The notes beneath the pieces were generated by a model. That model did no database searches. It saw only the letters and a list, made by a program, of their open reading frames with translations, and had not been told where the DNA came from. Below, piece by piece: positions 1 through 59,212 of a stretch of DNA of 64,000 bases. Source of the stretch: Flavobacteriales bacterium (lineage in GTDB: Bacteria; Bacteroidota; Bacteroidia; Flavobacteriales_F; PHOS-HE28); the NCBI GenBank assembly GCA_046329115.1, contig JAXLVG010000002.1, positions 3,714 through 67,713 on the forward strand, written 5' to 3'. The position numbers and the translations under genes were made by a program. How positions within the stretch are numbered: the stretch's first letter is position 1; each line of letters opens with the position of its first letter.

Positions 1-492
1 ATACCCCTGTTGGTGCGCAGGGGAGGCACGGTATCCCTCGCCGATGGAACATACCCGTTCCAGCTCGCATTGCCCGCTGGCTCGTATCACGTGGTGGTGC
101 GCCATCGCAATCACCTCCCCGTGTCAGCCGCCACACCCGTCACGTTGTCCACCAATGGGCAAACGGTCGCGATGGATCTGACCTCGGCGGCAGCGCAGGC
201 CTATGGCTCGGAGGCACAAGTGCTGGTCGGTTCGCTGTACTGCATGTGGGCGGGAGATGTGAACGGTGACGGTTCCATCAAGTACACCGGCAGCGGGAAC
301 GACCGCGACCCGATCCTGGTAAGCGTGGGAAGCGCCACCCCGAACAACCTGGTGAACAATGTGTACAGCACGCGCGACGTGAACATGAACGGCCAGGTGA
401 ACTACACCGGCAGCGGGAACGACCGAGACCCCATCCTGGTGAACGTGGGCAGCACCACACCGAACAACGTCCGCAACGCACATCTGCCCTGA
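1..492 (+). CDS. 3' fragment (5' truncated at window edge) of a secreted protein carrying the novel RHRNHL/twin dockerin-like C-terminal module
   Basis: The frame is open from nt 1. The protein holds VVRHRNHLPV followed by two DVNGDG...NDRDPILV...TPNN repeats and ends ...NAHLP. It aligns with the C-termini of the proteins at 13504-16311, 20547-23417, 36715-38922 and 56798-59212. Confidence 0.7.
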   Translation: MPLLVRRGGTVSLADGTYPFQLALPAGSYHVVVRHRNHLPVSAATPVTLSTNGQTVAMDLTSAAAQAYGSEAQVLVGSLYCMWAGDVNGDGSIKYTGSGNDRDPILVSVGSATPNNLVNNVYSTRDVNMNGQVNYTGSGNDRDPILVNVGSTTPNNVRNAHLP

Positions 493-10283: not shown

Positions 10284-10311
10284 GTCGTGTTTTACCCCGG
10301 CAAAACACGAC
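10284..10311 (-). other. Perfect 10 bp stem / 8 nt loop hairpin 6 nt upstream of the ATG of 8728-10278
   Basis: gtcgtgtttt-accccggc-aaaacacgac. The loop motif ccccggc resembles the stems of the terminators at 27086-27120 and 30928-30965. Confidence 0.5.
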
Positions 10312-10326
10312 CAGCAATGAAGGTGC

Positions 10327-10989: not shown

Positions 10990-11018
10990 GCGACCGCAAA
11001 ATACGCGGTCCCCCGGCT

Positions 11019-13370
11019 TCAGGGGAGCTCCATCCGCAGGTGGATGCGCGTGCCCCGGCCATCGCCGCTTTCCACCGTGAGGCGGGCCCCGCAGCGTTCC
11101 GCACGGTGCCGCATGTTCTCCAGGCCGTGCCCCTCCACCTTGTCCGCCCCGATGCCCGAACCGTTGTCCTTCACGTCGAACGCGAGCGTGGTCGGGCTCG
11201 TGTGGAAGCGCACCTCGATCCGCGCGGCCCGGGCATACTTGATCGCGTTGTTCAGCGCTTCGCGGAAGATCAGGTAGATGTCGCGCTTCACCGCCGGGTC
11301 CAGCGTGCGATCCGCGCCTTCGTGCGCGCAGTCGATGCTGTGCTCCACCTTGCCCCACTTGAGCATGCGCTCGGCATGGGCGCGCACGCGCTCGGTGAGC
11401 CCCGCCAGCGAATCGTGGTGCGGATCGATGGACCAGACGATGTCGCCCAGGGAGCGGTTGGCCTCCCCGGCGATGCGCTCGATGTCGTCGGCCAGGGCGG
11501 GCACGGCCCGCACGTCGCTCTGCGCGAGCTCCCTGGCCTCGGTGCTCAGCAGCACGAGCTTGGTGAGGTCGCTGCCGAGCTGGTCGTGCACATCGCGCGC
11601 GATGCGCGTGCGTACTTCGGAGGCCTCGCGCGCCCGCTCGCTCTCCAACAGCCGGGCCTGCGCCTCCAGGATGGCCGCGTTCTTCTCCGCGAGCGCACGA
11701 CGGCTGCGGCGTGCGTTGCGCAGGAGCAGGAAGAGGAGCGCCCCCACCACGGCCACCACGCCGAAGCCCGCGGCCAGAAACAGGTTACGCCGGCGGTGGG
11801 CCGCGAGCTCGCTTTCCTGCGCGGCGTTCGTGGCGGACAGCTCCTCCAGTTCGGCATCCTTGCGTTCCGAGGCGAAGCGGACGTTCAAGGCGTTCAGGTC
11901 CTTGATGCGCTCCAGGTCCAGCAGGCTGTCCTTGGCGGTGAGGTAGAGCCGAAGGGAGGCCAGGGCCTCCGTCGTGTTGCCGTTCGCCTGATGCACTTCG
12001 TGCTGCGCGAACAGGGCATCGCGCCAGGTCTCCAGCCAGCCTTCGCGGGTAGCGAGGGCGATGAGGGTGTCCAGGTCGCCAAGGGCGGCACGGCGATCGG
12101 CCGCATCGCCATGCGCCAGGATCCGCGCGTGCTCCACCCGCAGCCACGCCCGATCGATGCGCAGCCCGGGATGTTGGGCGAGCGCGAGGCCCTCCCCGAT
12201 GTAGGCCCGGGCCTGACCGAAGCGCCCCAGCCGACGGCACACCTTGCCCAGGTCCAGCAGGATGGCCGCCTCCTCAACGCGCTCGCCCTGCACCATGGTG
12301 ACCGCCTGCGGGCCGCGCATCAGCTCCAGCGCCCGCTGCAGGGACCGCAATGCGGTATCCAGCCTGCCCAGCTCCAGGAGGCAGGCACCATAGGTGCCCA
12401 GCAGCGTCGCCTTGACGTGCGCCTGTTCGACCCCCTCCAGAAGGTCGAGCGCCTCCTTCAAATGCGCCAGCGCCGAGGCGCGATCCCCGAAGTCGATGTG
12501 GAGCTCCGCGAGCTCCCGGCCGGTCTCCACGATCATGGCGTTCGACCGCAGCATCTTGGACAGCGCGTGTGCGCGAAGGGCGTCCCGCAGGGCCAGGTCC
12601 TGATCGGCCAGTTCGTTCGCGGCGAAGGCGCGCATGCGGCAGGCCGCGCGCTCGTGCAGGAGCGCGCCGGTGCGCTGGATGAGCGCTTCCGCAACGGCGC
12701 AATGGTGCAGGGTGCGCATGAACGCCTCGGTGGTGATGGCCTCCATGGCACTGTCCAGCTGCAGCTGGATGAGCAGGAAGGTGTCGCGCGAGGCGGTGAT
12801 GACCTCCGCGATGCGATCGCTGGCGCGTTGCACCGTTTCCGGGTCGGCCGATCCACCATACTTGGTAACGCCCAGTGCCCAGTAGAGGCCCGTGGCCGAA
12901 CGGTGGCGTTCGAACGCTTCGAGCGCCTTGGCGTAGTGCACAAGCGCCACGCTGTCCTCGCCTGCATCCTCGCAACGGTCGATGTACAGGCACCAATGCG
13001 CGTAACCCAGGTCCTCCTGCGGTCCATGCTGGGTGAGCAGCCGCAGGGCCCGTTCCAGTTCCGCCGCCTCACCGCCATAATATCCGCTCGTCTGCCTGGC
13101 CGCCACCCGGCGCGTGATCGCACTGCCCAGCAACGAAGGGTCGTTGAGGCGCTCGGCCAGCGCGATCGCCTCCTGCGCCGCCTCCATCGCGCTCACCGGG
13201 TCCGTATCGCGCTGGTACCATGCCAGGCGTTCCAGCTTGCGCGCCCGGTCGGCATCGCTCAAACGCGCATTCGCCAGTTCGCGCTGGAGCCTGCCGATGT
13301 TGACGGCCTGCGCCAACGCCCCGTGCCAGGGCGCAAGCAGCAGCAGGAGGACAAGGGCACGGCCGGTCAT
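11019..13370 (-). CDS. Sensor histidine kinase with periplasmic TPR repeats, HisKA_3 and HATPase_c (HK-A)
   Basis: Signal/TM1 MTGRALVLLLLLAPWHGALAQ, TPR-like region, TM2 LFLAAGFGVVAVVGALLFLLL, then RIARDVHDQLGSDLTKL and ...ALNNAIKYA...VKDNGSGIG...GHGLENMRHRAE. It lies directly upstream of the RR. Confidence 0.85.
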   Translation of the reverse strand: MTGRALVLLLLLAPWHGALAQAVNIGRLQRELANARLSDADRARKLERLAWYQRDTDPVSAMEAAQEAIALAERLNDPSLLGSAITRRVAARQTSGYYGGEAAELERALRLLTQHGPQEDLGYAHWCLYIDRCEDAGEDSVALVHYAKALEAFERHRSATGLYWALGVTKYGGSADPETVQRASDRIAEVITASRDTFLLIQLQLDSAMEAITTEAFMRTLHHCAVAEALIQRTGALLHERAACRMRAFAANELADQDLALRDALRAHALSKMLRSNAMIVETGRELAELHIDFGDRASALAHLKEALDLLEGVEQAHVKATLLGTYGACLLELGRLDTALRSLQRALELMRGPQAVTMVQGERVEEAAILLDLGKVCRRLGRFGQARAYIGEGLALAQHPGLRIDRAWLRVEHARILAHGDAADRRAALGDLDTLIALATREGWLETWRDALFAQHEVHQANGNTTEALASLRLYLTAKDSLLDLERIKDLNALNVRFASERKDAELEELSATNAAQESELAAHRRRNLFLAAGFGVVAVVGALLFLLLRNARRSRRALAEKNAAILEAQARLLESERAREASEVRTRIARDVHDQLGSDLTKLVLLSTEARELAQSDVRAVPALADDIERIAGEANRSLGDIVWSIDPHHDSLAGLTERVRAHAERMLKWGKVEHSIDCAHEGADRTLDPAVKRDIYLIFREALNNAIKYARAARIEVRFHTSPTTLAFDVKDNGSGIGADKVEGHGLENMRHRAERCGARLTVESGDGRGTRIHLRMELP

Positions 13371-13401
13371 GCTGCGAAGGTGCGTGGTGCGCGTGGCACC
13401 G

Positions 13402-13453
13402 GCAATCACCCATGCGGGTGAAGCGACCGGATCAACCCGAACGGGTTATGGCG
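13402..13453. promoter_or_regulatory. Divergent-promoter operator pair (GGCAATCACCC...CAACCCG-AA-CGGGTTATGGC)
   Basis: aacccgaacgggtt is a perfect 7-2-7-type palindrome. The arm sequences match those at 20477-20518. The site lies between HK-A and the divergent novel-CTD gene. Confidence 0.4.
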
Positions 13454-13503: not shown

Positions 13504-16311
13504 ATGAACCGGACATGCACCCTTCTGCTCTGCATCGCGACCGCGCAGCTCGCATCCGCACAGCAATACCCGCTCGACAGTCTTTGCTGGGGACTTACCG
13601 GCAGCGGCATCGCGATCCTGGAGGACACCGTGCACGACCGGATCTTCGTGGGGGGTGACTTCGTACAGGTGCGCGACCCGCGGGAGCTTGAGAACTGCGT
13701 GGAGTTCAACGCGACCAGCGGGCTCGTGGTGCGGCAGTCGCCGAACCCGGACGGGGCGGTGCGGTGCGCGCTGCCCGATGGCGCCGGGGGCTGGTACATC
13801 GGCGGTGACTTCAGCGTGGTCGGCGGCCTGCCACGCGCCCGCCTCGCCCACGTCCTGCCGGACGGCTCTGTGGCGGCATGGGCCCCGGTGGTGGTGGGTT
13901 CGGTGCGCACCATGCTCATCAAAGGCGACACCCTGTACTTCGGTGGCGGCCTCACCACCGTGAACGGTGCGGCACGGACCAACCTGGCGGCCGTGCGCCG
14001 CTCCACCGGCACCAATGTGGCATGGACCCAGGCCACGGCGAACGACACGGTGCGGTGCATGGCCCTGAACAGCGGCCGGCTCTACGTGGGTGGCGACTTC
14101 ACGCAGGTGAACGGATCGGCGCGATCGCGCATCGCTTCCTTCACCGTAAGCAACCACGCGCTCACCACCTGGGCACCCACCGTGGACGACAAGGTGCGCT
14201 GTGCCATCGCAACCGCATCTGCCGTGTACATCTGCGGCGACCTCACCACGGTGAACGGCATCGCGCGCGGTGGCGCCGCATCGTTGAACCCGACGGGCAA
14301 CTTCGTGCTGAACTGGAACCCGAACACGAACGGAACGGTGAACTGCATGGCCCTCTCCGGGTCGTCCATCCTGCTCGGGGGCACGTTCACGCAGGTGAAC
14401 GGTTCCACGCGCAACCGCATCGCCATTGTTTCGGCCGGCACCATAGCGTCGCTGTCAACGTGGACCAAGGACCTCGACGGTGCTGTGGAAGGCATCGCCG
14501 TGCTGAACGATGTGGTCTATGCGACCGGCGCGTTCGAGCGTGTGGATGCCGTATTCCGCCACCGCTTGGTGGCGTTGGGGCTGCCGGGCACCGCCGCGCC
14601 GGCCATCGGCGATTGGCGCGCGAGCGTTCACGGCGAGGCCGCATGGTGCATCGCGGCGCAGGGGTCGGGCATTTTCGTCGGCGGTGCGTTCTCCCGTTGC
14701 GGACTGTCGCGCCGGAGCATCGCCGCTTATGATCAAACCACCGGACTTCCCTTGCCCTGGGACCCGGGGGTGAACGGCGAGGTGCGCTCGCTGGCCCAGG
14801 GCGCTGACGGTACTGTGTACGCCGCCGGGTCGTTCACTTCAGTGGGGGGCGTTGCGCGTGCGAACATGGTGGCCCTCGACCCCCTCACCGGTGCGGTGCT
14901 TTCGTGGAGCGGCGGCGCCACCCTGGGCGATGTGAACGCCATCGTTGTGAGCGGCGATACCCTGGTGGCCTGTGGCACCTTCGCCTTCCTGGGCGGAACG
15001 CCCCGCCTGGGCCTCGGAGCGTTGTCGCGCACCACCGCGGCGGTGCTTCCATGGAACCTGCCGGTGGCGCCCGGCGACGAGCCGAAGAAGCTGTTGCTCC
15101 GCCGGGATACGCTGTACGTGTGCGGCCACATCACCGCCGTTGGCAGTACGGGGCGCAACGCAGTGGCGGCCATCCGCCTCTCCACCGGTACCGTGCTCCC
15201 GTTCGCCGCCGATTGTGCAGCAGGAAGTTCGGCGCAGCAGATGGCCTTGGACGGTGACCGGCTCTGGGTGGGCCGCGTTGATGGCATCTGGGGAGGTGAG
15301 AACATACTCTCGTGGGACCTTCTTGTGCTGAACGCGTACACCGGCGCCATTCTGCCTCGCCAACCCATGGAAGGGAACGCCCTGGCCGTGCGTGGCAACA
15401 AGGTCTTCAGCGGCCAGGCCTACCTCGCCGCCCGGGATGCCGCAACAGGCTGGCTCACCGGGAGCAGCCTCGGGCAGAGCTGCGGGGGTGCGTTGCTGTT
15501 CTCGGAAAGCGGCGACCTGCTTTGTGCAGGCGTGGCGGATAATATCCCCTCCAACAAGGGTTTCTTCCGTGTGCGCATCGATCCGAGCATCTCCATCCGC
15601 GTCATGCTCGATGGACCCTTCAGCACCGGCACCATGACCCCCACCCTGAACGATCTCGGCCTGTTGCCGACCACCGAGCCTTACACGTCCCTGGGCTACA
15701 TGCATACGGGCGGTGGTGGCGGCGAGGTCGCTGGTTCCGCGCTCAACTTCCCGTCGAGCGGCATCATCGACTGGATCGTCGTCGAATACCGGGATGCGGT
15801 GGACCCGTCCATCGTGGTCGCTTCCGCGAGCCGATTGCTCTACTCCAACGGCCGCGTGGAACGGGCGGGGGGTATCAGCATCCCGACCTTCGCCGCCGAT
15901 CCCAACGGCCAGTACCACGTGGCCGTGCGCCACCGCAACCACCTGGGCGTGATGACCGCACAACCGGTGGACTTCTCCACCAGCCCCTTCATCGACTTCA
16001 CGGCGCAGAGCACGGCGGTATTCGGCACTGATACCCGGAAGAACAACAGCGGTACCCTGTGCCTGTGGGCCGGTGATGTGAACTTCGACGGAACGATCAA
16101 GTACACCGGAAGCAACAACGACCGCGACCCCATCCTGGTGAGCATCGGGGGCACCACGCCGAACAGTGTCTTGAGCGGCATGTACAGCGCGGCCGATGTG
16201 AACATGGATGGTCTGGTGAAGTACACCGGCAATAAGAACGATCGCGATCAGGTGCTGCTGAGCATCGGCGGCACCACGCCGAACAGCACGCGCACCGACC
16301 AGCTGCCGTGA
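13504..16311 (+). CDS. Secreted delta-60/beta-propeller repeat protein with the novel RHRNHL/twin dockerin-like C-terminal module (ends ...TDQLP)
   Basis: Signal peptide MNRTCTLLLCIATAQLASAQ. It has many GGDFTQVNG...R.RLA roughly 60 aa repeats. The C-terminal roughly 247 aa (about 15568-16311) is the conserved module. The ORF portion 13114-13503 overlaps HK-A on the other strand and is rejected. Confidence 0.8.
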   Translation: MNRTCTLLLCIATAQLASAQQYPLDSLCWGLTGSGIAILEDTVHDRIFVGGDFVQVRDPRELENCVEFNATSGLVVRQSPNPDGAVRCALPDGAGGWYIGGDFSVVGGLPRARLAHVLPDGSVAAWAPVVVGSVRTMLIKGDTLYFGGGLTTVNGAARTNLAAVRRSTGTNVAWTQATANDTVRCMALNSGRLYVGGDFTQVNGSARSRIASFTVSNHALTTWAPTVDDKVRCAIATASAVYICGDLTTVNGIARGGAASLNPTGNFVLNWNPNTNGTVNCMALSGSSILLGGTFTQVNGSTRNRIAIVSAGTIASLSTWTKDLDGAVEGIAVLNDVVYATGAFERVDAVFRHRLVALGLPGTAAPAIGDWRASVHGEAAWCIAAQGSGIFVGGAFSRCGLSRRSIAAYDQTTGLPLPWDPGVNGEVRSLAQGADGTVYAAGSFTSVGGVARANMVALDPLTGAVLSWSGGATLGDVNAIVVSGDTLVACGTFAFLGGTPRLGLGALSRTTAAVLPWNLPVAPGDEPKKLLLRRDTLYVCGHITAVGSTGRNAVAAIRLSTGTVLPFAADCAAGSSAQQMALDGDRLWVGRVDGIWGGENILSWDLLVLNAYTGAILPRQPMEGNALAVRGNKVFSGQAYLAARDAATGWLTGSSLGQSCGGALLFSESGDLLCAGVADNIPSNKGFFRVRIDPSISIRVMLDGPFSTGTMTPTLNDLGLLPTTEPYTSLGYMHTGGGGGEVAGSALNFPSSGIIDWIVVEYRDAVDPSIVVASASRLLYSNGRVERAGGISIPTFAADPNGQYHVAVRHRNHLGVMTAQPVDFSTSPFIDFTAQSTAVFGTDTRKNNSGTLCLWAGDVNFDGTIKYTGSNNDRDPILVSIGGTTPNSVLSGMYSAADVNMDGLVKYTGNKNDRDQVLLSIGGTTPNSTRTDQLP

Positions 16312-16390: not shown

Positions 16391-18457
16391 TCAGGCCCGT
16401 TCCACGAAGAACATCTCCATGGCCCCCTTGCCCTTCGCCTGCACCTTGCCGCGGGGGATGAAGGTGAAGCGTTGTCCGTTGTCGGTTGCCGGTTGTCCGT
16501 TGCTGCTGTCCGCCGCGCGCAGGATCGTGTGACCATCAACTGACAACCGACCACCGACAACCAACCGGTACGTCGCTTCACTGATGTTCACCTTGCCCAC
16601 CTCACCGGACGATTCCATGCGGCTCGCCGTGTTCACCGTATCGCCCCAGATATCGTACTGGAACTTCTTCACCCCTACGATGCCCGCGACCACGGGACCT
16701 GTGTGCACGCCGATGCGGATCTCGAAGTAGGGCTTGCCGGCCGCGATCTTCCGCTGCTTGCCCTCCTCGATGAAGTCCCGCATCTCCAAGGCGGCCTTGA
16801 TGGTGTCCACCGCGTGCGTGGCGTTCGCCACCGGCAGGCCACCGGCGGCCATGTAGGCATCGCCGATGGTCTTGATCTTCTCGATCCCGTACTTCTCCGT
16901 GATCCTGTCGAAGGCGCTGAAGCACTCGTTCAGGTCGCGCACCAGCTCGCGCGGCGTCAAGTTCTCGCTGAGCGAGGTGAAGCCCTTGAAGTCGGTGAAG
17001 AGCACGGTGACGTGATCGAGCTGTATGGCCTGCGCCTCGCCCTTCTCCTTCAGTTCATCCGCGACCTCCTCCGGCAGGATGTTCAACAACAGGGCCTCGC
17101 TGCGCGCCTTTTCCCTGCTGATGCGGTTGCGCTGGGTGAAGAAAACCCCGGCCAGAAGGAGCATGAGCCCGAAGCCACCTATGGATGCGTTGCGTTGAAG
17201 CTGCTTCCGACGCAGTGCTTCGGCAGCGATGGCGTCCTTCTTCTCCTGTTCGGCGGCGAGCAGGGCTTCCTTCTTCTCGTATTCATATTGGAAGCGTTGT
17301 TTGAGCAGGTTCCTCCGGTTGCCTTCGTTGACGAAACTGTCACGGGCGGCGATATATGATTCGTGCATGAACAACGCCTCCGCGCTGCGGCCAGCCTGCT
17401 TCAAAGCCCGGTACCGCACCTCACGCGCATCACGCAGGACCTCCAGCCCCCCGAACGCGTTGGCATGCCGCAATGCTCGTTCCGATGAACGTAGTGCCTC
17501 GCTCACCATCCCCTGCTGTAGCCATGAACGCGTGAGTTCCACGGTGGCCGAGGCCGCCAACATCTCGTCCTGATGCTCCAGCGCCAGCTTCAGGCTGCTG
17601 TCCAATAAGGAAACGGCCGCTTCATGTCTGCCTGCCATCATCTCCAACTTGCCCAAGCTGCCCAACGCCGTGGTGATGCTGGTGACATCGTTCATGCGTC
17701 TGGCGATCGCGAGGCTCTTCTCATAGCCATCCCGGGCCTCTTCAAGCCGGCCCTGCCGCTCCTTGGTCATGCCGATGCAGATCCACGCCTCCAGTGCGCA
17801 TTGTTCGTCGCCGATGGCTTCCGCAACGGCAATGCGCCGTTGGAAGTAGTCCAAGGCGATCGCATCCTCACCTTGTTCGTAGAAGGCCACGCCGATATTC
17901 CCAAGTGCCCTGGCAATGACGCTGCTATCGGACATGGCCTCACCGAGCTTCAATGCTCTTGTCAAGTAGTCGATGGAAAGCGCATCGTCCCCTTTGTAGC
18001 TGGCTACGTTCCCCAAGTTGTTCAGGATACCCGCCATCCGCCCGGTGTCCCCGAGCTGTTGCCAAATGGCGTAGCTGCGCCCGTAACAGGCTTCAGCGCT
18101 GTCCCAATGGCCCAGTTCGCGATGGCTGATGCCTTTGAGGTTCCAGGCGCTGGCTTCCTCCCTACGAAGTCCGATGTTCCGGAGCTGTGGGATGAGCTGC
18201 TCCACAGCTTGTGCCAGGCTGTCCGGTGCAGCGCCATACCGCCGTTCGAACAAGTAACTGAGCAGCGCTTTGGTCCGCACGCTATCCGGACGCGTCACAT
18301 CCTGATGCACGGCCAAGAGGCTATCAAGGTCCACCGGGTGCTGTGCCTTGCCACTGGACCCCACCACGGAGGACAGGACAAGCGCAGCTGCAAGCGAGCC
18401 GATGCGGGTACGGAGAACGGTCACGAACATGAGGTGCTCTTCCAGATCATCACGCAA
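16391..18457 (-). CDS. Membrane-anchored class III adenylate cyclase with a periplasmic TPR sensor (paralog of 645-2750)
   Basis: Same architecture as 645-2750. The cyclase domain DNA 16391 to about 17045 is more than 90% identical to 645 to about 1300. The start overlaps the HK-B stop by 8 nt (or lies 20 nt after it if MFVTVL is the start). Confidence 0.85.
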   Translation of the reverse strand: [688 protein letters not shown]

Positions 18458-20471
18458 CGAGCTCCACCTCCAGCCGCACCAATGTACCGCCCTCCGGTTC
18501 GCTGGCGATCACCAGCCTTCCGCCCAGGCGCTCGGCGCGCTCCTTCAAGTTGCGCAACCCGCGGCCCTTGCGCAGGGCGCTGGTGGTGTTGAAACCCTTG
18601 CCATCGTCCTTCACCTCCAGCCGGACGCTGCGCTCCCGTGCCACGAAGGTGACGTGGATGCAATGCGCCTCGGCGTACTTCACCGCGTTGTTCACCGCTT
18701 CGCGCAGGATCAGGTAGAGGTCGCGCTTGGTGGCGGGGTCCACCGGCCGGTCGCGGCCTTCCACAAGGCAATCGATGGTGTACGTGGCACCGCTGGTGCA
18801 CAGCATGTGTTCGCAGAACTGGCGCGACCGGTCCATGAGGCCGGTGAGCGTGTCGTGCGCGGGCTCCACGGCCCACACGATATCGCTGAGCGAGCGGCCC
18901 GCCTCCGAGGCGATGCGGTCGATGTCCGCGACCAGTTGCGGAACGGCGTCGGGGTCGTCCTGCAGGCTTGCGCTCACCTCGCTGCCCAGCATGCTCAGCT
19001 TGGTGAGGTCGCTGCCCAGCTGGTCGTGCACATCGCGCGCGATGCGCGTGCGCACCTGCTCGGCCGCGCGCTGCTGCTCGCTCCGCACCAGCCGGTCCTG
19101 CGCCGCCAGGATGGCGGCATTGGCCTTGCGCACCACGCGCGAACGGCTCCACAGCGCCAGCGCCACGGCGATGGAGAGGACGCAGGCCACGATGATGACG
19201 TTGCGCCGTGTGCGTTCGTCGGCCAGCTGGTGCGCATGCTCCATCGCCGTGGTGCGCGCCGCCGCCGCATGCTCCAGGCTGTCGCGCAATTCCTGCTCGC
19301 GGAAGCGCGCCCACAGCACGGCCTCGCGCCCGTTCATGCGCTCCACACTGTCCTTCAGCGCGGACCAGCGCTCGTGCGCATCCAGTGCCTCCGCCGCGCG
19401 CCCCTGCGCCTTCAGCGCGGTACGCAGGCCGGCCAGCGCATAGAGCATCGAACCTTCATCGCCCAGTTCGCGCGCCACGCCCACATTGCCGAGACCGTCG
19501 GCCAGTGCGAGCCCTCGCCGGTACCAGTGCTCCGCTTCCCGGTGGTCGCCCGATAGCGCGAGGCCATCGCCGATCAGGTTGATGCAACCGCAATGCGCGG
19601 TGAGGTCGCCCATGCGCTCGGCGAGCGCGGCGCATGACCGTGCCGTGCGCAGCCCGTCCGCACCCCTCCCTTGTTCGTAGTACAGCCGGGCGAGCGGCGC
19701 GAGCGCGGGCAGGCTGTCCCACGCATTGCCGGACCGGCCGGCCACCTTCAGGCCGCGCAGCAGCAATGCCTCGGCATCGGCGCTGCGGCCCTGCGTGCGC
19801 CGGATGCGCGCGCGCGCGCTGAGCACCAGCACTGAATCACCGGGGGTGCCGCCGCCCGCGCTGTCCAGTTGCGCCCATGCCGCTTCGTGCGCACGGCCAT
19901 CGGTGAGCAGGCCGGCCAGGTGGATGTGCGCCTGGGCCTCCAGCGACCGGTCGCCCAGCTGCCGCGCGATGGCCAGCGACCGGCGGAAGGAGCGCTCCGC
20001 CTTGTCATGCGCATCGGCCAGGCCGTACACCAGGCCGATGGCATCCAGCCCTTCGGCCGCACCGCGCACATCGCCCACGGCCTCGAACGCGGCGATGGCC
20101 TCTTGGAAGGAGACCAGCGCGGCCGTGAGGTCGCGGGCGAACTTGTGGTGGTAGCCCGTGAGGTAGTGGTACGCGCCCCGGGCGCGCTGGGCGCGTGCAC
20201 GGACGTGCGCATCGCTGTGCCGCAGCAGCTCGCTGCTCAACGCATCCAGCCGCCGCAGGTAAGGGGCCGCCTTGGGCGAGGTGAACCAGGACTCGGCGGC
20301 CCAGGTGAGCAGGGTGAGCTGCGCGGTGTCCTTCCGCGTTGCATCGAGCAGCGGCAGGATGGAGTCCAGCCGCTCCGGCTCAGCCTGGGCCCGCGCGATC
20401 GCAGCGCACAGCACGGCGAGCAACAGAAAGGAAGCGCGGCGGAACACGCGGCAAAGGTGCCGGCCAAGCAA
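18450..20471 (-). CDS. Sensor histidine kinase with periplasmic TPR repeats, HisKA_3 and HATPase_c (HK-B)
   Basis: RIARDVHDQLGSDLTKL is identical to HK-A, then ILREAVNNAVKYA...VKDDGKGF...GRGLRNLKERAERLGG. It probably uses a TTG/alternative start at 20471. No cognate RR is adjacent. It is co-oriented and overlapping with the cyclase 16391-18457. Confidence 0.8.
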   Translation of the reverse strand: MLGRHLCRVFRRASFLLLAVLCAAIARAQAEPERLDSILPLLDATRKDTAQLTLLTWAAESWFTSPKAAPYLRRLDALSSELLRHSDAHVRARAQRARGAYHYLTGYHHKFARDLTAALVSFQEAIAAFEAVGDVRGAAEGLDAIGLVYGLADAHDKAERSFRRSLAIARQLGDRSLEAQAHIHLAGLLTDGRAHEAAWAQLDSAGGGTPGDSVLVLSARARIRRTQGRSADAEALLLRGLKVAGRSGNAWDSLPALAPLARLYYEQGRGADGLRTARSCAALAERMGDLTAHCGCINLIGDGLALSGDHREAEHWYRRGLALADGLGNVGVARELGDEGSMLYALAGLRTALKAQGRAAEALDAHERWSALKDSVERMNGREAVLWARFREQELRDSLEHAAAARTTAMEHAHQLADERTRRNVIIVACVLSIAVALALWSRSRVVRKANAAILAAQDRLVRSEQQRAAEQVRTRIARDVHDQLGSDLTKLSMLGSEVSASLQDDPDAVPQLVADIDRIASEAGRSLSDIVWAVEPAHDTLTGLMDRSRQFCEHMLCTSGATYTIDCLVEGRDRPVDPATKRDLYLILREAVNNAVKYAEAHCIHVTFVARERSVRLEVKDDGKGFNTTSALRKGRGLRNLKERAERLGGRLVIASEPEGGTLVRLEVELVA

Positions 20472-20546: not shown

Positions 20547-23417
20547 ATGCCGTTCGCCATGCGCTCCTCCACCACCGGCCTCGCCGCGCTCCTCCTCCTG
20601 CTCACCCACAGCCATGCCTGTGCACAGCACTTCGCAGTGGACACCACGTGGTGGTACACCGATGGTGAGGTGAAGGCCATCACGGAGGACACGGCGAACG
20701 CGCGCGTGGTGGTGGGCGGACACTTCACGCGCATGCTGCCGCCCCATCCCTCGGCGCACGGCGCCGTGGTGGGCACGCTGAACGATGTGCTGCGCACCGG
20801 TGATGCACGGCCGAACGACCGTGTGCGGTGCGCCGTGCCGGACGGCGGCGGCGGCTGGTACATCGGCGGCGCCTTCACCGCCGTGGACGGTGCCTTCCGC
20901 TACCGGCTTGCGCACCTGCTGGCGGACGGCAGCCTGGGCACGTGGGCACCGGTGGTGAACGGCGAGGTGAACGCCCTGGCGATGAAAGGCGACACCATGT
21001 ACGTGGGCGGCTCCTTCTCGCAGGTGAACGGGCAGACCCGCGTGAACCTCGCCGCCGTGCGGCTGAGCACCGGTGCGAACGTAGCCTGGGGCGGCACCGC
21101 GGATGCGCAGGTGCGCGTGCTCGCCGTCGATGGCGACGACCTCTTCGTGGGCGGCGACTTCACCCATGCCTCCAGCCAGCCGCGCGGGCGTCTGGCCGTG
21201 TACAACACCACCACGCATGCCCTCTCCACCGTGTGGGACCCGGACCTCAACGGGCCCGTGCATGCCCTGGCCTTCGCCACGTATGGCGTGGTGGTGGGCG
21301 GCGACTTCACCCAGGTGGGCACCACCGCGCGCAACCACCTGGCGAGCCTCGAGCGCGCGGACGGAGCGGTGAAGACCTTCAACCCGGGGCCGAACAACAC
21401 GGTGCGTTGCATCCAGGTCACCGGTTCCAACATCTACATCGGGGGCGACTTCACGCAGGTGGGAGCCAACCCGCGCACCTACCTCGCGCTGGTGCACAGC
21501 GGTGGAGGCACCAGCAGCGACTGGATCAATAACATGAACGCACCGGTCTATTCCCTGCACCTGGTAACGGCCGGCGCCCTCTACGTCGGCGGCCAGTTCT
21601 CGCGCGCGGGAGGGGCCTATCGCCACCGCGCGGCCGCCTTCCGCCTGCTGGGCAACGGTACCGCGCCCTGGCTGCTGCCCTGGGCGCCCGCCGGCAACGG
21701 CACGGTGCGCTGCATCGAGCAACAGGGCAACGACCTGTATATCGGCGGCGGCTTCGACACCCTCGGCGTCACCCGGCCGCACATCGCGCTGCTGGACGCG
21801 GCCATCGGCGCTCCCCAGGCCTGGAACGAGGGCACCAGCACCTGGGTGAACACCGTGGCAATCGGGACCACCCGCACCTACGTCGGCGGCGCCTTCGATT
21901 CGCTGTGCACCAGCGGGGCCCTGCGCCAGAAGATCTTCGCCTTCAACAGCGCCACCGGTGCGCTCTCCACCTGGAGCACGGAGCTGGACGACCAGGTGAC
22001 CAGCCTGGCGGTGCATGGCGGCAAGCTTTACGCCTGCGGGCTGTTCACACAGGCGGCCGGGCAGCCGCGGCTGCACTTCGCCGTGTTCGACAACCCGTCC
22101 GCCAACCTGACCTCCCTTAACCCCGATGCCAATGGCGCCCTCTCCCTGCTGCTCCACGGCGATACCTTGTTCCTGGGTGGCTCCCTCGACTTCACGGGCG
22201 ACCCGCCCCGGCCGCTGCTCAACGCGCTCATCCTGCCCGCCGGTACACCCCATCCGTTCGACCCCCAGGTGAACAACACGCACCTGTCGAACCACGTTTT
22301 GCACATGGCCGCGCGCGATGGGCGCATCTACTTCACCGGCCAGTTCGGCTGGGTGGGCGGCATTGACCGGGACAATGCCGCCGCCGTGCGCACAATGGAC
22401 GGGCAGCTGCTGCCCTGGTGGCCCGATGCCCCGGCGCAGAGGGCGCCCATCGCCTTCACCGGCCGCACCATCAGCATGGTGGTGAGCGGCCAGGCCGGCA
22501 CGCAGTGGGAGCTGCGCGCCTTCGATCCGGACGATGGTGCGCGCGTCTCCGACCACCTTGTGCTGGATGGCCGGGCGGACGAACTGCGCACCCTTGCGAA
22601 CGGGCACCTGCTCGTGGGCGGCTCCTTCACCCAGATCGGTGGGCGCCCCGTGCGGCACTTCGCGCGCGTGCACGTTACACCCACCCTGCGCGTGCGGGCC
22701 TTCCTGCAAGGTCCGTTCGATATGGGCACGTTGCTGATGGACAACAACCTCTCCCAGATACAGGCGATCCCCCTGCAGGAGCCCTACACCGCCCTGGGCT
22801 ACGTGCACACGGGCGGTGGCGGCGGCGAGGTGGCCACCACCGCCATCTACGGAGGCATCACCGCCAGCGGCATCGTGGATTGGGTGGTGGTGGAGCTGCG
22901 CGACCCCGTGGATCCCTCCATCGTCGTGGCCTCCCGTTCGGCCCTGCTCCGCCGCGATGGGCTGGTGGTGGACCACACCCAGGGCCCGCTCCTGCCCTTC
23001 GGGCCCGATCCGGACGGCACCTACTACATCGCCATCCGCCACCGCAACCACCTGGGTGCCATGACCGCCGCACCAATGGACATCGGAGGCAACGCACTGG
23101 CGGACTTCGCAGCCAGTGGTGCCGACACCTATGGCACCGACGCCGTACTGAGCGACCCATACTTCAGCCTGCTCCGGGCCGGCGATACCAACTTCGATGG
23201 CGAACTGAAGTACGTGGGCGCCGACAACGACCGCGACCCCATCCTGCTGCGCGTGGGCGGCACCACACCCAATGGCACGGTGATCGGCTACTTCAACGAG
23301 GATGTCACCCTCAACGGCATCTCGCAGTACGTGGGCTCCTTCAACGATCGCGACCTGATCCTGCAGAACGTGGGCGGCCTGGTGCCCACCGCCACGCGCA
23401 CGCAGCAGTTGCCATGA
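20547..23417 (+). CDS. Secreted delta-60/beta-propeller repeat protein with the novel RHRNHL/twin dockerin-like C-terminal module (ends ...TQQLP)
   Basis: Signal peptide MPFAMRSSTTGLAALLLLLTHSHACAQ. GGDFT.VG...R..LA repeats follow. The C-terminal roughly 245 aa (about 22679-23417) is the conserved module. Confidence 0.8.
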   Translation: MPFAMRSSTTGLAALLLLLTHSHACAQHFAVDTTWWYTDGEVKAITEDTANARVVVGGHFTRMLPPHPSAHGAVVGTLNDVLRTGDARPNDRVRCAVPDGGGGWYIGGAFTAVDGAFRYRLAHLLADGSLGTWAPVVNGEVNALAMKGDTMYVGGSFSQVNGQTRVNLAAVRLSTGANVAWGGTADAQVRVLAVDGDDLFVGGDFTHASSQPRGRLAVYNTTTHALSTVWDPDLNGPVHALAFATYGVVVGGDFTQVGTTARNHLASLERADGAVKTFNPGPNNTVRCIQVTGSNIYIGGDFTQVGANPRTYLALVHSGGGTSSDWINNMNAPVYSLHLVTAGALYVGGQFSRAGGAYRHRAAAFRLLGNGTAPWLLPWAPAGNGTVRCIEQQGNDLYIGGGFDTLGVTRPHIALLDAAIGAPQAWNEGTSTWVNTVAIGTTRTYVGGAFDSLCTSGALRQKIFAFNSATGALSTWSTELDDQVTSLAVHGGKLYACGLFTQAAGQPRLHFAVFDNPSANLTSLNPDANGALSLLLHGDTLFLGGSLDFTGDPPRPLLNALILPAGTPHPFDPQVNNTHLSNHVLHMAARDGRIYFTGQFGWVGGIDRDNAAAVRTMDGQLLPWWPDAPAQRAPIAFTGRTISMVVSGQAGTQWELRAFDPDDGARVSDHLVLDGRADELRTLANGHLLVGGSFTQIGGRPVRHFARVHVTPTLRVRAFLQGPFDMGTLLMDNNLSQIQAIPLQEPYTALGYVHTGGGGGEVATTAIYGGITASGIVDWVVVELRDPVDPSIVVASRSALLRRDGLVVDHTQGPLLPFGPDPDGTYYIAIRHRNHLGAMTAAPMDIGGNALADFAASGADTYGTDAVLSDPYFSLLRAGDTNFDGELKYVGADNDRDPILLRVGGTTPNGTVIGYFNEDVTLNGISQYVGSFNDRDLILQNVGGLVPTATRTQQLP

Positions 23418-36714: not shown

Positions 36715-38922
36715 ATGCGCCTGCTCCACCACGCCCTTGCCCTGGCCGCCCTCACCGCCAGCCTCTCCGTGCACGCCCAACCGGCGTTCCGCTCGGCAAG
36801 CTCGGCGATGTTCAATGACACGATCTGCACAGTGAACAAGCCTGCCGGCGTGGTGACCGGGGATGTACTGATCGCGTGCGGGTTTGGGGAAGGGGCGTCG
36901 TTATCGGGTCCGACCTTCGTTGCACCCAACGGATGGACCCTGGCCGCTACGCAGTCCATGAACCTTTCAGCACGAATAGTGCTCTACAGCCGGGTCGTGA
37001 CCGCTACCGAACCAGCGTCCTATGTGTGGAGCGCGTCCCCCATCCAAGGGGGTGGTGTCGTCGGCATCATGGCCTTCAGTGGCATTGACACCATTGCTCC
37101 GATCGATGTGATCGCCGGGTCGAGCACGAGCACCAACATCACCCAGACGGCTCCTTCGGTCACCCCGAGCTTCAGTCCGGCCATGATCCTCACCTGGCAT
37201 GCGAACCTCAGCTGCAACACCTGGACATCACCCGCGGGCATGATCCAGGCGATCAGCAGATCCTCCACACAGCCTTTCAACGTGGCAGGTGTCTCGATCT
37301 GCGGCAGTTACCTGTTCCAAGCCACGGCCGCGGCCACAGGAACGCTCACTGCAACGCTCGGGTTGGACCTTGATCAGATCGGCCGCGCCTACACGCTGGC
37401 CCTGCGCTCGGCCAACACCACCCCCACGGCCACCAACCTCAACGCGCCCGAGGTCGTGTTCGAGGACACGCCCCAGGACCTCACGGACATCGTAGTGGGC
37501 GATGCCCAGGGATCGAACCTCACCGTTACGCTCATGCTCTCCAACCCGGTCGTCGGCAGCCTTAGCACCGCTACGGTGAACAGCACCACGTCCAGCTTTA
37601 CCAGCTCCACCGGCGTATGGACCGCCACCGGTCCTGCCGCCGACCTGAACACGCTCCTCGCCGGGCTCATCTTCAACCCCGCTCTGAACTACTACGGCTC
37701 GTTCACCCTGGGCGTGCAGGTGAGCGATGGCGCGCTGAGCGTCACCGGCACCAAGGCCTTCACCGTGGAACCGGAGAACGATGCCCCCACCCTGAGCGCG
37801 CCCACCTCTTTCGCTTGTGCCCTTGGCAAGCCCCTCATGATCAGTGTGGCCGGTCTCAACGGCATCACCGTGAACGATGCGGACGACACCAGCCTGGAGA
37901 TGGACCTGGACTTCACCCTCGGCTCGGCCTCCGTCACCCTGGCCACCACAGCAGGCCTCACCTTCACCCAGGGCGACGGCACGGCGGACAACCGCATGAC
38001 CTTCCAAGGCACCAAGGCCGCCATCAACGCAGCGCTCAACGGCATGGTGGTGCTGATGAACACCTACGGCAACGTGGCCAACGTCTTCACGGTCACCGAC
38101 CTGGGCGGTGGCCTGGGCATGCCGCAGGCCTCGGTCTCACAGTCCCTCGTCTTCCAGGTGCGCAACCTGCAGGTGAACGCCCGCGTGGTGCTGCAAGGCG
38201 CGTACGATGCCACCACCGGCCTGATGAACGACAACCTGCGCAGTGCGGGCCTGGTACCTCTGACACAGCCCTTCACCGCACTGGGCTACCAGCACCTCAA
38301 GGGCGGTGGCGCGGAGGTGACCACGCCCGCCGTGCTCGCCGTCACCGGCCCGAACGCCATCGTGGACTGGGTGCTGGTGGAGAAGCGCAACAGCACCGGC
38401 TCCACCGTGCTCTGCTCCACGGCCGCCCTGCTGCAGCGCGATGGCGATGTAGTGGAGGTGAACGGCACCTCGCCCGTGAAGCTCCATGACATCACCACCT
38501 CCGGTGCCATCGTGGTCCGCCACCGCAATCACCTGGGCGTGATGTCCGGCAACTTGAGCTTCAGCACCGGGCAGAACCCCACGCCCACGGCGGTGGACTT
38601 CACGCTGGCGGCCACCGCCACCTACGGCAGCAATGCGCGCACAAGCATCACCGGTGCGTTCCCGGTGCAAGCGCTGTGGGCCGGCGATGTGAACTTCAAC
38701 GGCACCACCCGGTACGTGGGCGCCGGCAACGATCGCGATCCGATCCTGCTGACCGTTGGCAGCACCGCGCCCAACAACGTGATCAACTCCACCTACAGCA
38801 CCCGCGATGTGAACCTTGACGGGCAGGTGAAGTACACCGGTGCGGACAACGATCGCGACCCTATCCTCCTCACCGTGGGCAGCACCACGCCCAACAATGT
38901 GCGCTTGGCGCAAGTGCCGTGA
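36715..38922 (+). CDS. Secreted cadherin-like/Ig-like repeat protein with the novel RHRNHL/twin dockerin-like C-terminal module (ends ...LAQVP)
   Basis: Signal peptide MRLLHHALALAALTASLSVHAQ. A central region has ...VEPENDAPTLSAP... and related repeats. The C-terminal roughly 250 aa (about 38169-38922) reads VLQGAYDATTGLMNDNLRSAGLVPLTQPFTALGY...IVVRHRNHLGVM...WAGDVNFNG...NDRDPILL...TAPNN...DVNLDG...NDRDPILL...TTPNN. Confidence 0.8.
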   Translation: MRLLHHALALAALTASLSVHAQPAFRSASSAMFNDTICTVNKPAGVVTGDVLIACGFGEGASLSGPTFVAPNGWTLAATQSMNLSARIVLYSRVVTATEPASYVWSASPIQGGGVVGIMAFSGIDTIAPIDVIAGSSTSTNITQTAPSVTPSFSPAMILTWHANLSCNTWTSPAGMIQAISRSSTQPFNVAGVSICGSYLFQATAAATGTLTATLGLDLDQIGRAYTLALRSANTTPTATNLNAPEVVFEDTPQDLTDIVVGDAQGSNLTVTLMLSNPVVGSLSTATVNSTTSSFTSSTGVWTATGPAADLNTLLAGLIFNPALNYYGSFTLGVQVSDGALSVTGTKAFTVEPENDAPTLSAPTSFACALGKPLMISVAGLNGITVNDADDTSLEMDLDFTLGSASVTLATTAGLTFTQGDGTADNRMTFQGTKAAINAALNGMVVLMNTYGNVANVFTVTDLGGGLGMPQASVSQSLVFQVRNLQVNARVVLQGAYDATTGLMNDNLRSAGLVPLTQPFTALGYQHLKGGGAEVTTPAVLAVTGPNAIVDWVLVEKRNSTGSTVLCSTAALLQRDGDVVEVNGTSPVKLHDITTSGAIVVRHRNHLGVMSGNLSFSTGQNPTPTAVDFTLAATATYGSNARTSITGAFPVQALWAGDVNFNGTTRYVGAGNDRDPILLTVGSTAPNNVINSTYSTRDVNLDGQVKYTGADNDRDPILLTVGSTTPNNVRLAQVP

Positions 38923-56797: not shown

Positions 56798-59212
56798 CTA
56801 GGGGATCTGTTCGGAGCGGATGTTGTTCGGCGTGGTGCTGCCCACGTTCACCAGGATCGCGTCCCGGTCGTTACCGCTGCCCACGTAGATCACGGTGCCG
56901 TCCATGTTGGTGTCTTCCGTGTAGTACCCTGCGACCGTACTGTTCGGCGTGGTGCTGCCGACACGTACCAGGATGGGATCACGGTCGTTCCCGGCTCCCG
57001 TGTACCCGAGCTGCTTGTTGAAGGTGACATCACCGGTCCACATGGCCATCACGGACCCGACCATGGAGCGCGCCTCCGTGCCGTAAGTGGATGTGGCCGC
57101 ACTGGTGAGGTCGATGGTCGTAGTGGTTGAAGATAGTGCCAGCGCAGCCCCTGTCATCACACCCAGGTGATTGCGGTGTCGAACGGCAACGAAGTAAGCA
57201 GCCGACGGCGTCGTCAGGGACACAGGGCTCGTACCGTCCAGGGCAACAACGTCACCATCCCGCTGCAGCAGCGCGGCACAGCTGGCCAATACCGTTGAAG
57301 GGGAGCTGCTGTTCCGCAACTCCACGATCACCCAGTCCACAATGGCGTTGTTACCCGTGACGGATAGAACACCGGAACCAAGCGTCCCGCCCGCACCGGG
57401 CAGACCGGTGAACACATATCCAAGGCCAGTGTACGGCTCGGTCGCGGGCAGGATCCCTGCCGAACGCAACGCGTCCGACATCAACCCGGTGGCGATATCG
57501 TAAGGTCCGCTCAGGAAGACCTTCGGGGAGACCTTCACATCCGGTGTCGTCAAGGGAGGGAAGGAGAATTTGAACATCCGCGTGCTCCATCCGCCCGTCG
57601 GATTGTATTGCGCCGTTCCATAGAAAGAAAGCCCATCCGCGGGGTCAACGTTCAGTGAGCCATAGTCTCCGTACCGATTGCTGGTGTTGCTGGCCGCCCC
57701 GGCCACAATGGAGGTCTCCGCCATCGTCATCTGCCCCAGTGGATCGGTGCGGTAGCGGCCAGTGTAACGGACGCTGGGATACACGTTGCCGCCCGTGGTC
57801 CCGCTGATGTTGTACATGAGGCCGATATCCCCGTTCTGGTTGATGGCGATCCCGCTCATCCATCGGTCGTTCGCATCCGGCGACCAGGTGCCTTGCTGGT
57901 AGATCGACCAGGGGTTCGCACTGCCGCCGGTCCTGTGGAGCTCATACCAGCGCACGCCACCCCGGTCGGAGCCCACATCGGTCACGTGGCTGCAAACGAT
58001 GGCCTCATAGCCGAAGGCGGAACTGAGGTTCCGGTAGCACACCCGGTTCATCAGCACTTCGCGCAGCGGGTCCAGCGTGGTGGTGGTGCCGGGTTGGTTC
58101 ATGCAAGCGAAAGCGGTGTAGCCACACAGCCCCGTATCAAACGCCTCCGTGTTCATCGTGGTGGGTCCGGAGATGGTGCTGCTCGCGGGGGTGGCCGCGT
58201 TGTAGTTGATGGTCCACATCTCCAGGCGGTCAACGTCCGTGGTGATGGTGGTCCAGGCATCATCGGCCATGCGCATGAACATGGCCGGCGCGCCGGCGGG
58301 CGGTGCATCACCACCGTCAAAGTGCACCGGCGTGCAGGCCTGGAAGCCGATGGTGGCGTAGGCGGGAACGGTGAACCGCACGGCGGTCCCTGCCGTGCCG
58401 GCGAGCATGTTCGCACGAGGCAGGGCGTAGATGGCGGGTGAGTTCTCGTTCGAGGTCACCACATAGCAGTTGTTCCAAACCCCGTACTTGGGATAGTCCG
58501 GGAAGTTGGTGGCGGTGTAGCTGTACGCATACCACGCCCCCGTGGGATCGGCCGTCTGCGACACGGCCACATACAGGTTGTTGTTGCCCGATGCGAACTC
58601 GGTCATCAGCCAGCGGTCGGCAAGGGCATCGTACAGCACCACGGGGTCGCCAAGGCCGCTGTAACTGATGATGGAACTGAGGAAATTGTCCATGTACGTC
58701 TGGGCGGCCCCCACCGTGGCGAGGCTCTTGTTGCAGATGCGGAAGTAGGCACCGGAGCCACCGTTGATCATCTGGATCACATGGTTCGGACCGACAGCAA
58801 GGCATGGATCGGGCGGATTCACGCCCGTGTTGCCGATGCCGTTCACACTGATGTCGACCGCACGCTCGAACCCATGCAACGGAGCAGCCGTCTGCAGCGC
58901 GGGATCCTCACCGAGGGGACGCGCCGTGGGGTCCACATGCGCATGGAGCCGCGCCTCCTTGGTCCCTGGCGGATTCCGCTTGACGACCAGACCGTTCGCA
59001 TCACGCACTACCGCGTTCTCGAAGACCTGCGTGCTGTCCCAGTGAACGAAGGGCTGCACCGTTCCAAGGAATTCCACCGGCACCGTCCGGTCGATGTTGA
59101 TGAGCAACTGACCACCTGCATCCGGGTTGCTGATGTTCTGCGCCAGAAGCCCTAGGCCGACCAGGGATGCGAACGCGGTGGCCAACGGACGAATGCGTAC
59201 TGAAAGGGTCAT
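56798..59212 (-). CDS. Secreted protein (unknown, possibly hydrolase-like N-terminal region) with the novel RHRNHL/twin dockerin-like C-terminal module (ends ...SEQIP)
   Basis: Signal peptide MTLSVRIRPLATAFASLVGLGLLAQ. The C-terminal roughly 245 aa (56801 to about 57535) reads VFLSGPYDIATGLMSDALRSAGILPATEPYTGLGY...IVDWVIVELR...VAVRHRNHLGVM...WTGDVTFNKQLGYTGAGNDRDPILVRVGSTTPNS...DTNMDGTVIYVGSGNDRDAILVNVGSTTPNN. Confidence 0.8.
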   Translation of the reverse strand: MTLSVRIRPLATAFASLVGLGLLAQNISNPDAGGQLLINIDRTVPVEFLGTVQPFVHWDSTQVFENAVVRDANGLVVKRNPPGTKEARLHAHVDPTARPLGEDPALQTAAPLHGFERAVDISVNGIGNTGVNPPDPCLAVGPNHVIQMINGGSGAYFRICNKSLATVGAAQTYMDNFLSSIISYSGLGDPVVLYDALADRWLMTEFASGNNNLYVAVSQTADPTGAWYAYSYTATNFPDYPKYGVWNNCYVVTSNENSPAIYALPRANMLAGTAGTAVRFTVPAYATIGFQACTPVHFDGGDAPPAGAPAMFMRMADDAWTTITTDVDRLEMWTINYNAATPASSTISGPTTMNTEAFDTGLCGYTAFACMNQPGTTTTLDPLREVLMNRVCYRNLSSAFGYEAIVCSHVTDVGSDRGGVRWYELHRTGGSANPWSIYQQGTWSPDANDRWMSGIAINQNGDIGLMYNISGTTGGNVYPSVRYTGRYRTDPLGQMTMAETSIVAGAASNTSNRYGDYGSLNVDPADGLSFYGTAQYNPTGGWSTRMFKFSFPPLTTPDVKVSPKVFLSGPYDIATGLMSDALRSAGILPATEPYTGLGYVFTGLPGAGGTLGSGVLSVTGNNAIVDWVIVELRNSSSPSTVLASCAALLQRDGDVVALDGTSPVSLTTPSAAYFVAVRHRNHLGVMTGAALALSSTTTTIDLTSAATSTYGTEARSMVGSVMAMWTGDVTFNKQLGYTGAGNDRDPILVRVGSTTPNSTVAGYYTEDTNMDGTVIYVGSGNDRDAILVNVGSTTPNNIRSEQIP

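Follow-up and report, generated by a model that had tools for sequence, protein, structure and literature searches.

A large unannotated family of C-terminal modules in Flavobacteriales, predicted to join a beta-sandwich to a divergent dockerin

Five proteins encoded in a 64,000-nucleotide stretch of DNA from a Flavobacteriales bacterium (assembly GCA_046329115.1, contig JAXLVG010000002.1, positions 3,714 to 67,713; hereafter the window, with a G+C content of 65%) end in the same module of about 245 amino acids. According to structural modelling, the module is a beta-sandwich of about 165 residues, named here the HRNHL domain, which includes a 60-residue N-terminal wrap and is rigidly packed on a divergent dockerin of about 80-88 residues. 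The original prediction, made from the DNA letters, had regarded the module as an undescribed, distinct class of C-terminal tag; it is not wholly new but a variant of the known arrangement in which an X-module precedes a dockerin (XDoc). It probably, though far from certainly, acts as an XDoc-type docking handle: by binding a receptor, cohesin-type or other, it would tether Sec-exported cargo into surface assemblies.

A C-terminal module common to five proteins had been proposed beforehand, and the translations, the alignment and the profile scan all agree on it. With a profile built from the five copies and run over all six reading frames, exactly five copies were found in the window, all at the C-termini of open reading frames (ORFs), with E-values of 1e-80 to 1e-123. 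The aligned copies (alignment A1) are 240-250 residues long, share 46-51% pairwise identity and have 40 invariant columns, which include R-H-R-N-H-L and two N-D-R-D motifs. Such identity over 240 residues, together with the thousands of homologues described below, led to the rejection of chance or of a repeat artefact as the source of the similarity. The refined module starts differ by 0-7 codons from those given earlier. The module-bearing genes are as follows.

13504..16311, + strand: Protein A (935 amino acids, MFN8350097.1), with signal peptide, delta-60 repeat propeller and module; stop codon at 16309-16311
15589-16308, + strand: module of Protein A, with the HRNHL beta-sandwich at 15589-16044 and the dockerin-like twin-repeat tail at 16045-16308
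20547..23417, + strand: Protein B (956 amino acids, MFN8350100.1), with signal peptide, delta-60 repeat/Rax2-like propeller and module
22683-23414, + strand: module of Protein B, with the tail at 23151-23414
36715..38922, + strand: Protein C (735 amino acids, MFN8350111.1), with signal peptide, weakly tandem-95/cadherin-like cargo and module
38170-38919, + strand: module of Protein C, with the tail at 38656-38919
56798..59212, - strand: Protein D (804 amino acids, MFN8350121.1), with signal peptide, cargo without a family match, and module
56801-57535, - strand: module of Protein D, the copy used for modelling, with the sandwich at 57065-57535 and the tail at 56801-57064
1..492, + strand: 3' fragment of a fifth module gene at the window edge (module 1-489), covering the last 163 residues and profile positions 88-245

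All four complete proteins are named 'hypothetical protein' at NCBI. Their N-termini read as signal peptidase I (SPase I) signals, in agreement with the Sec signal peptides assigned earlier, and the putative cleavage sites (ASA/QQ, ACA/QH, VHA/QP and LLA/QN, with the slash at the cut) place Gln at +1, which fits the Bacteroidetes 'Q-rule' of Gln at +1 after SPase I cleavage. For Protein C, the same gene start was called on independent metagenome contigs. The cargoes were initially described as five unrelated ones; they are diverse, but two of the five are of one kind, both matching the delta-60 repeat (PF17164, E 3e-13 and 4e-22). The label 'cadherin-like' for the cargo of Protein C is a weak call, resting on the sub-cut-off matches Cadherin_5 (E 0.73) and tandem-95 repeat (E 3e-5).

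The motifs quoted in the original prediction, L-x-G-P-[YF]-D, EPYTxLGY, IVDWVxVExR, LLxRDG and RHRNHLG, were all found as stated. The tail consists of twin repeats of about 40 residues, [DN]-V-[NT]-x-[DN]-G-x-x-x-Y-x-G-x-x-N-D-R-D-x-I-L...G-[GS]-T-x-P-[NT], with 16-25 identical residues between the two in a 42-column alignment. Their loop consensus is D-V-N-x-D-G-x-[IV]-[K-Y-T-G-x-x]-N-D-R-D-x-I-L, where the bracketed six residues form an insert, one per loop. Invariant polar and aromatic residues of the sandwich comprise D67, W68, E72, R74, R92, D93, D95, H120, R121, N122 and H123. The similarity extends beyond the dockerin part: the HRNHL sandwich is conserved to the same degree as the tail, for which reason a generic dockerin with unrelated upstream sequence was rejected as an explanation. 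A terminal Q-[LVI]-P had been ascribed to all five copies, from which the fragment at 1..492 deviates by ending in H-L-P.

The copy carried by Protein D was modelled with AlphaFold2 (AF2) from a 124-sequence alignment, giving a mean predicted local distance difference test score (pLDDT) of 91.5 and a predicted template modelling score (pTM) of 0.91. The model comprises a mostly extended N-terminal segment of about 60 residues, a beta-sandwich at residues 65-165 and two strand-helix-strand repeats. The sandwich is transthyretin/CarboxypepD-regulatory-like, and the last 88 residues of the module are predicted to adopt a dockerin fold, with two duplicated loop-helix (F-hand) segments within about 60-80 residues, as in solved dockerins. 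As in an XDoc, the modelled sandwich lies directly N-terminal of the dockerin and is packed with it as a rigid C-terminal unit. Type II XDoc chains of two organisms occupied the top ranks in Foldseek, with weak E-values of 0.014-0.05. Taken as a whole, the module is structurally closest to a protein-protein docking dyad.

Homology between the tail and canonical dockerins is indicated by bridging proteins and by profile comparison. In three family members, a dockerin with normal 12-residue loops takes the place of the twin repeats behind the same sandwich (KVFLEG...VDWV.VE.R...KHRNHL...YDFS). One of them, P0136 (1313 amino acids), contains five tandem units, each consisting of a sandwich (VFLQGP...VVDWVKVE.RK...KHRNHLS...YDFS) and a canonical 12-residue-loop dockerin, with Dockerin_1 matching over its cut-off (E 6e-8). 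The other two, P0265 and P0266, have a sandwich and then a canonical dockerin at the C-terminus, which was recognised by reading the sequence in P0265 and is recorded as PF00404 in a precomputed list in P0266. When the tail profile (A3) was compared with canonical dockerins (A9) by hhalign, a probability of 94% and an E-value of 1.2e-7 were obtained, with a 6-residue gap located exactly at Y-T-G-x-x-N; a caveat is that A9 shares the flanking MWAGD motif. Because of the bridging dyads and of this gap, the tail is taken to be a divergent dockerin whose Ca-loops each contain six extra residues. The window repeats can be read as dockerin loops D1-x-N3-x-D5-G-x-[IV]8, then the K-Y-T-G-x-x insert, then N-D-R-D at putative positions 9-12, and D/N is conserved at loop positions 1, 3 and 5; metals lie outside AF2 modelling. 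The dockerin-like docking suggested in the original prediction is thereby supported at the levels of both fold and homology.

In another family member, P0144 (1083 amino acids), three tandem units of sandwich plus tail follow an S8 peptidase fragment, and each unit ends in [QN]-V-P. Since this tripeptide recurs inside the array, it is more plausibly a structural element than a signal that acts at a free C-terminus. Multi-dockerin arrays such as those of P0136 and P0144 are unusual; a search with one P0136 unit, in which a word prefilter restricts sensitivity, returned two proteins only.

Compared with type I dockerins (PF00404, including the non-cellulosomal one of C. perfringens NagH, 2ozn), the module tail has the same duplicated D-x-N-x-D-G loop and helix, but canonical loop position 12 is displaced by the K-Y-T-G-x-x insert, and the tail has an N-D-R-D signature of its own and ends in a conserved R-x-x-Q-[LVI]-P. 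With the XDocs of C. thermocellum CipA (PDB 3kcp, 5g5d, 2b59) and A. cellulolyticus ScaA (4u3s, 4wi0), the module shares a C-terminal sandwich rigidly packed on a two-repeat dockerin, and, as in CipA, it terminates multi-cohesin proteins (described below). It differs from them in having no detectable sequence similarity, a sandwich of about 165 residues with a 60-residue N-terminal wrap rather than an Ig-like (immunoglobulin-like) X-module of about 100 residues, and dockerin repeats of about 40 residues with the 6-residue loop insert and short helices. Its host is a Gram-negative member of the Flavobacteriales bearing a type IX secretion system (T9SS) rather than a Firmicute, and its cargo is mainly propeller- or adhesin-like rather than carbohydrate-active enzymes.

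No known family covers the module, as had been claimed and as is now confirmed for Pfam and NCBIfam. In scans of the five window proteins, for which matches at E<=1 were reported, no Pfam-A or NCBIfam model was assigned to it, the fragment at 1..492 giving sub-threshold matches to CarboxypepD_reg (PF13620, E 0.005) and Dockerin_1 (E 0.11); nor was a Pfam family found on the module in 124 family members. Apart from the weak match on the fragment, the module differs from CarboxypepD_reg/transthyretin-like domains in its extra N-terminal 60-residue segment and in its own motifs DWV.VE.R, LQRDGD and RHRNHL. Nothing significant was found among PDB sequences with the whole-module profile (A1; single match 3ul4_B, E 0.98) or with the sandwich profile (A8; the top match being an unrelated adhesin domain, E 0.45). 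Literature searches on the HRNHL and NDRDPIL motifs, on dockerins together with T9SS and Bacteroidetes, and on noncellulosomal dockerins of Flavobacteria likewise turned up no description of the module.

The family is nevertheless very large. When 1.84 billion cluster representatives were searched exhaustively with HMMER, 13,265 clusters (50% identity) were found at E<=1e-3, of which 3,517 reach E<=1e-30; across the family the conservation of surface-type residues is very high, and at least 582 stretches were confirmed with one genome per GTDB species. The locus counts given here refer to the best 80 of these stretches, which contain 91 module ORFs, and the positional and C-terminal residue counts to 264 retrieved database proteins. 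All of the best 80 loci belong to uncultured Flavobacteriales or Bacteroidota metagenome-assembled genomes (MAGs), with several copies per MAG, and close relatives among the matches listed are nearly all from uncultured Flavobacteriales MAGs. The C-terminal position proposed in the original prediction was confirmed: the module ends no more than 3 residues from the C-terminus in 260 of the 264 proteins and lies at the extreme C-terminus of every one of the 91 ORFs. The final tripeptide is Q-L-P, Q-V-P or Q-I-P in 250 of the 264, and in the main family each protein has a single module copy. In P0165 and P0185, rare non-terminal cases, a Fib_succ_major domain comes after the complete module; these may be real fusions or gene-call read-through.

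The expected pairing with Sec signals holds for most members, 117 of 135 Met-start representatives having a signal-peptide-like N-terminus. Cargo in the family includes delta-60, Kelch, GEVED, SprB repeats, SBBP, PKD, FG-GAP, C-type lectin, P-domain and YHYH, together with enzymes such as peptidases of the M23, S8 and M64 families and GH18. Such a repertoire is typical of Bacteroidota surface proteins. In its C-terminal placement, its signal-peptide-bearing and diverse cargo and its several copies per MAG, the family behaves as would be expected of docking or anchoring modules.

Some of these cargo classes occur in the same window with a T9SS type A C-terminal domain (CTD). The following comparators have a CTD scoring above the TIGR04183 cut-off of 23 bits.

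6415-6921, - strand: ORF ending in a type A CTD (TIGR04183 31.2 bits)
8728-10317, - strand: delta-60 repeat protein (TIGR02608 E 3e-48) with a type A CTD (TIGR04183 25.3 bits)
23584-25320, + strand: ELWxxDGT-repeat protein with a type A CTD (TIGR04183 33.3 bits)
49670-56455, - strand: adhesin-like protein of 2261 amino acids (DUF7948, SprB repeats, SBBP, HYR) with a type A CTD (TIGR04183 41.3 bits)

One further, weaker candidate lies at 6918-7616 on the - strand (E 5e-5 with a local hidden Markov model, HMM), so that the 'at least six' type A CTDs counted in the original prediction become four above the cut-off and one weak candidate. The ORFs at 7505-8599 (delta-60 repeat), 6918-7616 (no family) and 6415-6921 (CTD) are consecutive on the - strand, and the region 6415-8599 may represent one frameshift-split delta-60/T9SS gene or a set of small CTD genes. 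The four type A CTDs all terminate in Gln (…VVKQ, …LMVQ, …LVVQ and …IVSQ), which may be peculiar to this lineage.

Types A, B and C are the only T9SS CTDs recognised in a 2023 review, type A being a 7-stranded Ig-like sandwich at the very C-terminus (PMC10202324). On the module of the five window proteins, no match at E<=1 was found to type A (TIGR04183/PF18962), type B (TIGR04131/PF13585) or type C (NF033708) models, and no type A match was found among the 124 members. The searched libraries, within which TIGR04131 and PF13585 are presumed to lie, detect the four type A CTDs in the window and give a weak type C (NF033708) match on P0136. Since the same libraries contain both models, the module is by sequence neither type A nor type C, as the original prediction had asserted for type A, and membership of types A, B or C was rejected for lack of any model match. 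Like T9SS CTDs, the module is strictly C-terminal and occurs on diverse Sec-exported surface or secreted proteins of Bacteroidota, and delta-60 repeat cargo in the window bears either one or the other; it differs in its length (about 245 versus about 70-100 residues) and in its dockerin-like, not Ig-like, C-terminal 88 residues.

Cohesins co-occur with dockerins, T9SS CTDs and the module in related contigs. P0122 consists of a signal peptide, three cohesins, Big_2 and the module, and its orthologue on contig L085, of which P0006 is a fragment, is 62% identical and matches Pfam Cohesin at E 2e-16. In both contigs, the gene directly upstream encodes a beta-helix, Dockerin_1, Cohesin and a T9SS type A CTD, the latter reaching 26.2 bits with TIGR04183 in L085, over the cut-off. 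This conserved gene pair looks like a cellulosome-like scaffoldin/anchor pair in T9SS-bearing Flavobacteriales.

L081:2-4686 and L085:18-5946: conserved gene pair, with an anchor-like gene 1 and a three-cohesin module gene 2

A Cys-rich linker, NTCG..GCMN.[YF]ACNY[ND]..A.CDDGTCAF, stands just before the module in P0003, P0006, P0122 and L085:3385-5946 and may be a small disulfide-bonded connector. A metagenome scan with a two-sequence cohesin alignment returned L085 and L086 only, and nothing was found with the cohesin-like N-terminus of P0006, a search in which the word prefilter restricts sensitivity.

Several observations weigh against the docking interpretation. With a small local cohesin HMM, no cohesin was detected in the window or in the 3-kb flanks on either side of the 80 loci; cohesins occur on only 2 of about 264 module proteins, and the cohesin-bearing relatives also have canonical dockerins, which could be the real cohesin ligands. 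Within 3 kb on either side of the 80 loci, no conserved neighbour gene was found, the largest real cluster comprising 7 loci. The tail itself is remote from known dockerins in sequence: only 2 of 94 tails match PF00404 Dockerin_1 (E>=0.016) and none reaches the Pfam gathering score, while the tail profile has no match among PDB sequences at E<=10. The loops are non-canonical, each being broken by its 6-residue insert, and N frequently stands at position 1 of repeat 1, which makes the putative Ca binding uncertain. Finally, the module proteins carry no recognisable outer-membrane translocation signal, and their surface exposure is an assumption.

Three other explanations can be set against docking, the most prominent being that the module is itself a new class of sorting signal at the outer membrane, such as a fourth T9SS CTD type that takes over from type A. 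We consider this unlikely, although much about the module would suit it: the extreme C-terminal position in about 98-100% of proteins, the near-invariant terminal R-x-x-Q-[LVI]-P (250 of 264), the cargo classes (delta-60, SprB repeat, GEVED, SBBP, PKD) that elsewhere, including in the window, carry type A CTDs, and the lack of any other evident outer-membrane route. The original prediction had put up mutual exclusivity with T9SS CTDs for checking, and none of the 124 scanned members carries one; there are also precedents in type B CTDs, whose secretion requires more than 200 residues, and in the sequence-unrelated type C (PMC10202324). Against it stand the predicted dockerin fold of the last 88 residues, which type A CTDs do not have, and the lack of any match to the type A, B and C models at E<=1. 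The dyad is moreover internal and tandem in P0136 (five times) and P0144 (three times), with P0136 having a separate weak T9SS type C-like tail at its end (NF033708 E 0.0015, under cut-off) and the [QN]-V-P ending recurring within the P0144 array, and no PorP/SprF-like neighbour gene is conserved over the 80 loci. The claim of a new class of sorting tag is thus unproven and has been somewhat weakened.

The HRNHL sandwich might alternatively bind a glycan (lipopolysaccharide, exopolysaccharide, or a prey or host sugar), with the Ca-loops serving to stabilise a lectin-like or envelope-binding anchor that has no protein partner. The many invariant polar and aromatic sandwich residues are of a kind common in binding sites, but the conserved charged ones might just as well make up the contact surface of sandwich and dockerin; and while the weak CarboxypepD_reg/transthyretin-like similarity points to folds known as accessory domains resembling carbohydrate-binding modules (CBMs), the unit as a whole has its best structural counterpart in a protein-protein docking dyad. 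A few short members are named 'hemagglutinin protein' at NCBI, a name that was set aside because no NCBIfam model supports it, and no CBM, lectin or hemagglutinin family matches. We find a glycan anchor quite improbable. Very doubtful, in our judgement, is a lineage-specific structural, stalk or self-association domain that is C-terminal by happenstance and has no targeting role: the internal tandem copies in P0136 and P0144 do resemble spacer or repeat domains, and the searches of the window and the 80 loci revealed neither a partner nor a conserved neighbour, yet the position is strict (260/264 and 91/91), the main family has one copy per protein, surface-type residues are very highly conserved across the 13,265 clusters, and the dockerin fold has served for docking in every case studied. 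The sorting-signal and the glycan- or envelope-anchor explanations are compatible with docking.

Under the docking interpretation, module proteins would be exported by Sec, after which the module, as a C-terminal docking handle, would bind a cohesin-type or other receptor, probably in a Ca-dependent manner, and so hold adhesin-like and enzymatic cargoes of diverse kinds in assemblies at the cell surface. For this lineage of Flavobacteriales, the module would offer an alternative to the type A CTD and its anionic lipopolysaccharide (A-LPS) anchor. A bolder and rather unlikely extension is that uncultured Flavobacteriales possess a Gram-negative cellulosome-like display, in which T9SS-anchored cohesin proteins, of the kind seen in the L081/L085 gene pair, capture dozens of XDoc-tagged cargoes per genome. 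The tagged proteins might bind a cohesin carrier in the periplasm and cross the outer membrane as its passengers through the T9SS, a form of hitch-hiking; alternatively, the T9SS might read the tag directly as a fourth CTD class.

The window contains several further genes of note. TPR + adenylate/guanylate cyclase genes are found immediately downstream of two module genes, in convergent orientation, with TPR-HisKA_3 histidine kinases and a LuxR response regulator alongside. Cyclase genes also lie downstream of the module gene in L081; the pattern is not general over the 80 loci. Two adjacent genes encode tail-fibre-like proteins with Peptidase_S74, an endosialidase intramolecular chaperone, in a chromosomal context, one of them also carrying collagen triple-helix repeats. 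Two long ORFs without a family are likely to be artefacts on the antisense strand, produced by the high G+C content; the + strand carries an AcrB-type RND efflux gene, and a TetR_N gene was placed at the equivalent of about 39.9 kb by independent gene calls on L082-L084.

645-2750, 16391-18457, 11019-13409, 18450-20471 and 10351-11358, - strand, and L081:6396-7785: cyclase, kinase and regulator genes
2747-4516 and 4520-6418, - strand: tail-fibre-like proteins with Peptidase_S74
39733-43209 and 43049-46684, - strand: long ORFs without a family
43085-46669, + strand: AcrB-type RND efflux gene
about 39.9 kb, + strand: TetR_N gene

The module thus defines a very large, unannotated family that marks the C-termini of many surface-type proteins in MAGs of Flavobacteriales. 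These MAGs were recovered from environmental metagenomes, and several of their names point to wastewater-treatment plants. The identification of the module as a sandwich plus dockerin gives these 'hypothetical proteins' a testable role and justifies a new domain model, with better annotation for thousands of them. If a high-affinity cohesin partner exists, synthetic biology would also gain the pair as a new orthogonal docking module. The family raises the question of how Bacteroidota proteins that lack a CTD cross the outer membrane, and it would extend X-dockerin-type docking beyond the cellulosomes of Firmicutes into a phylum thought to display its proteins by means of T9SS CTDs and lipoproteins.

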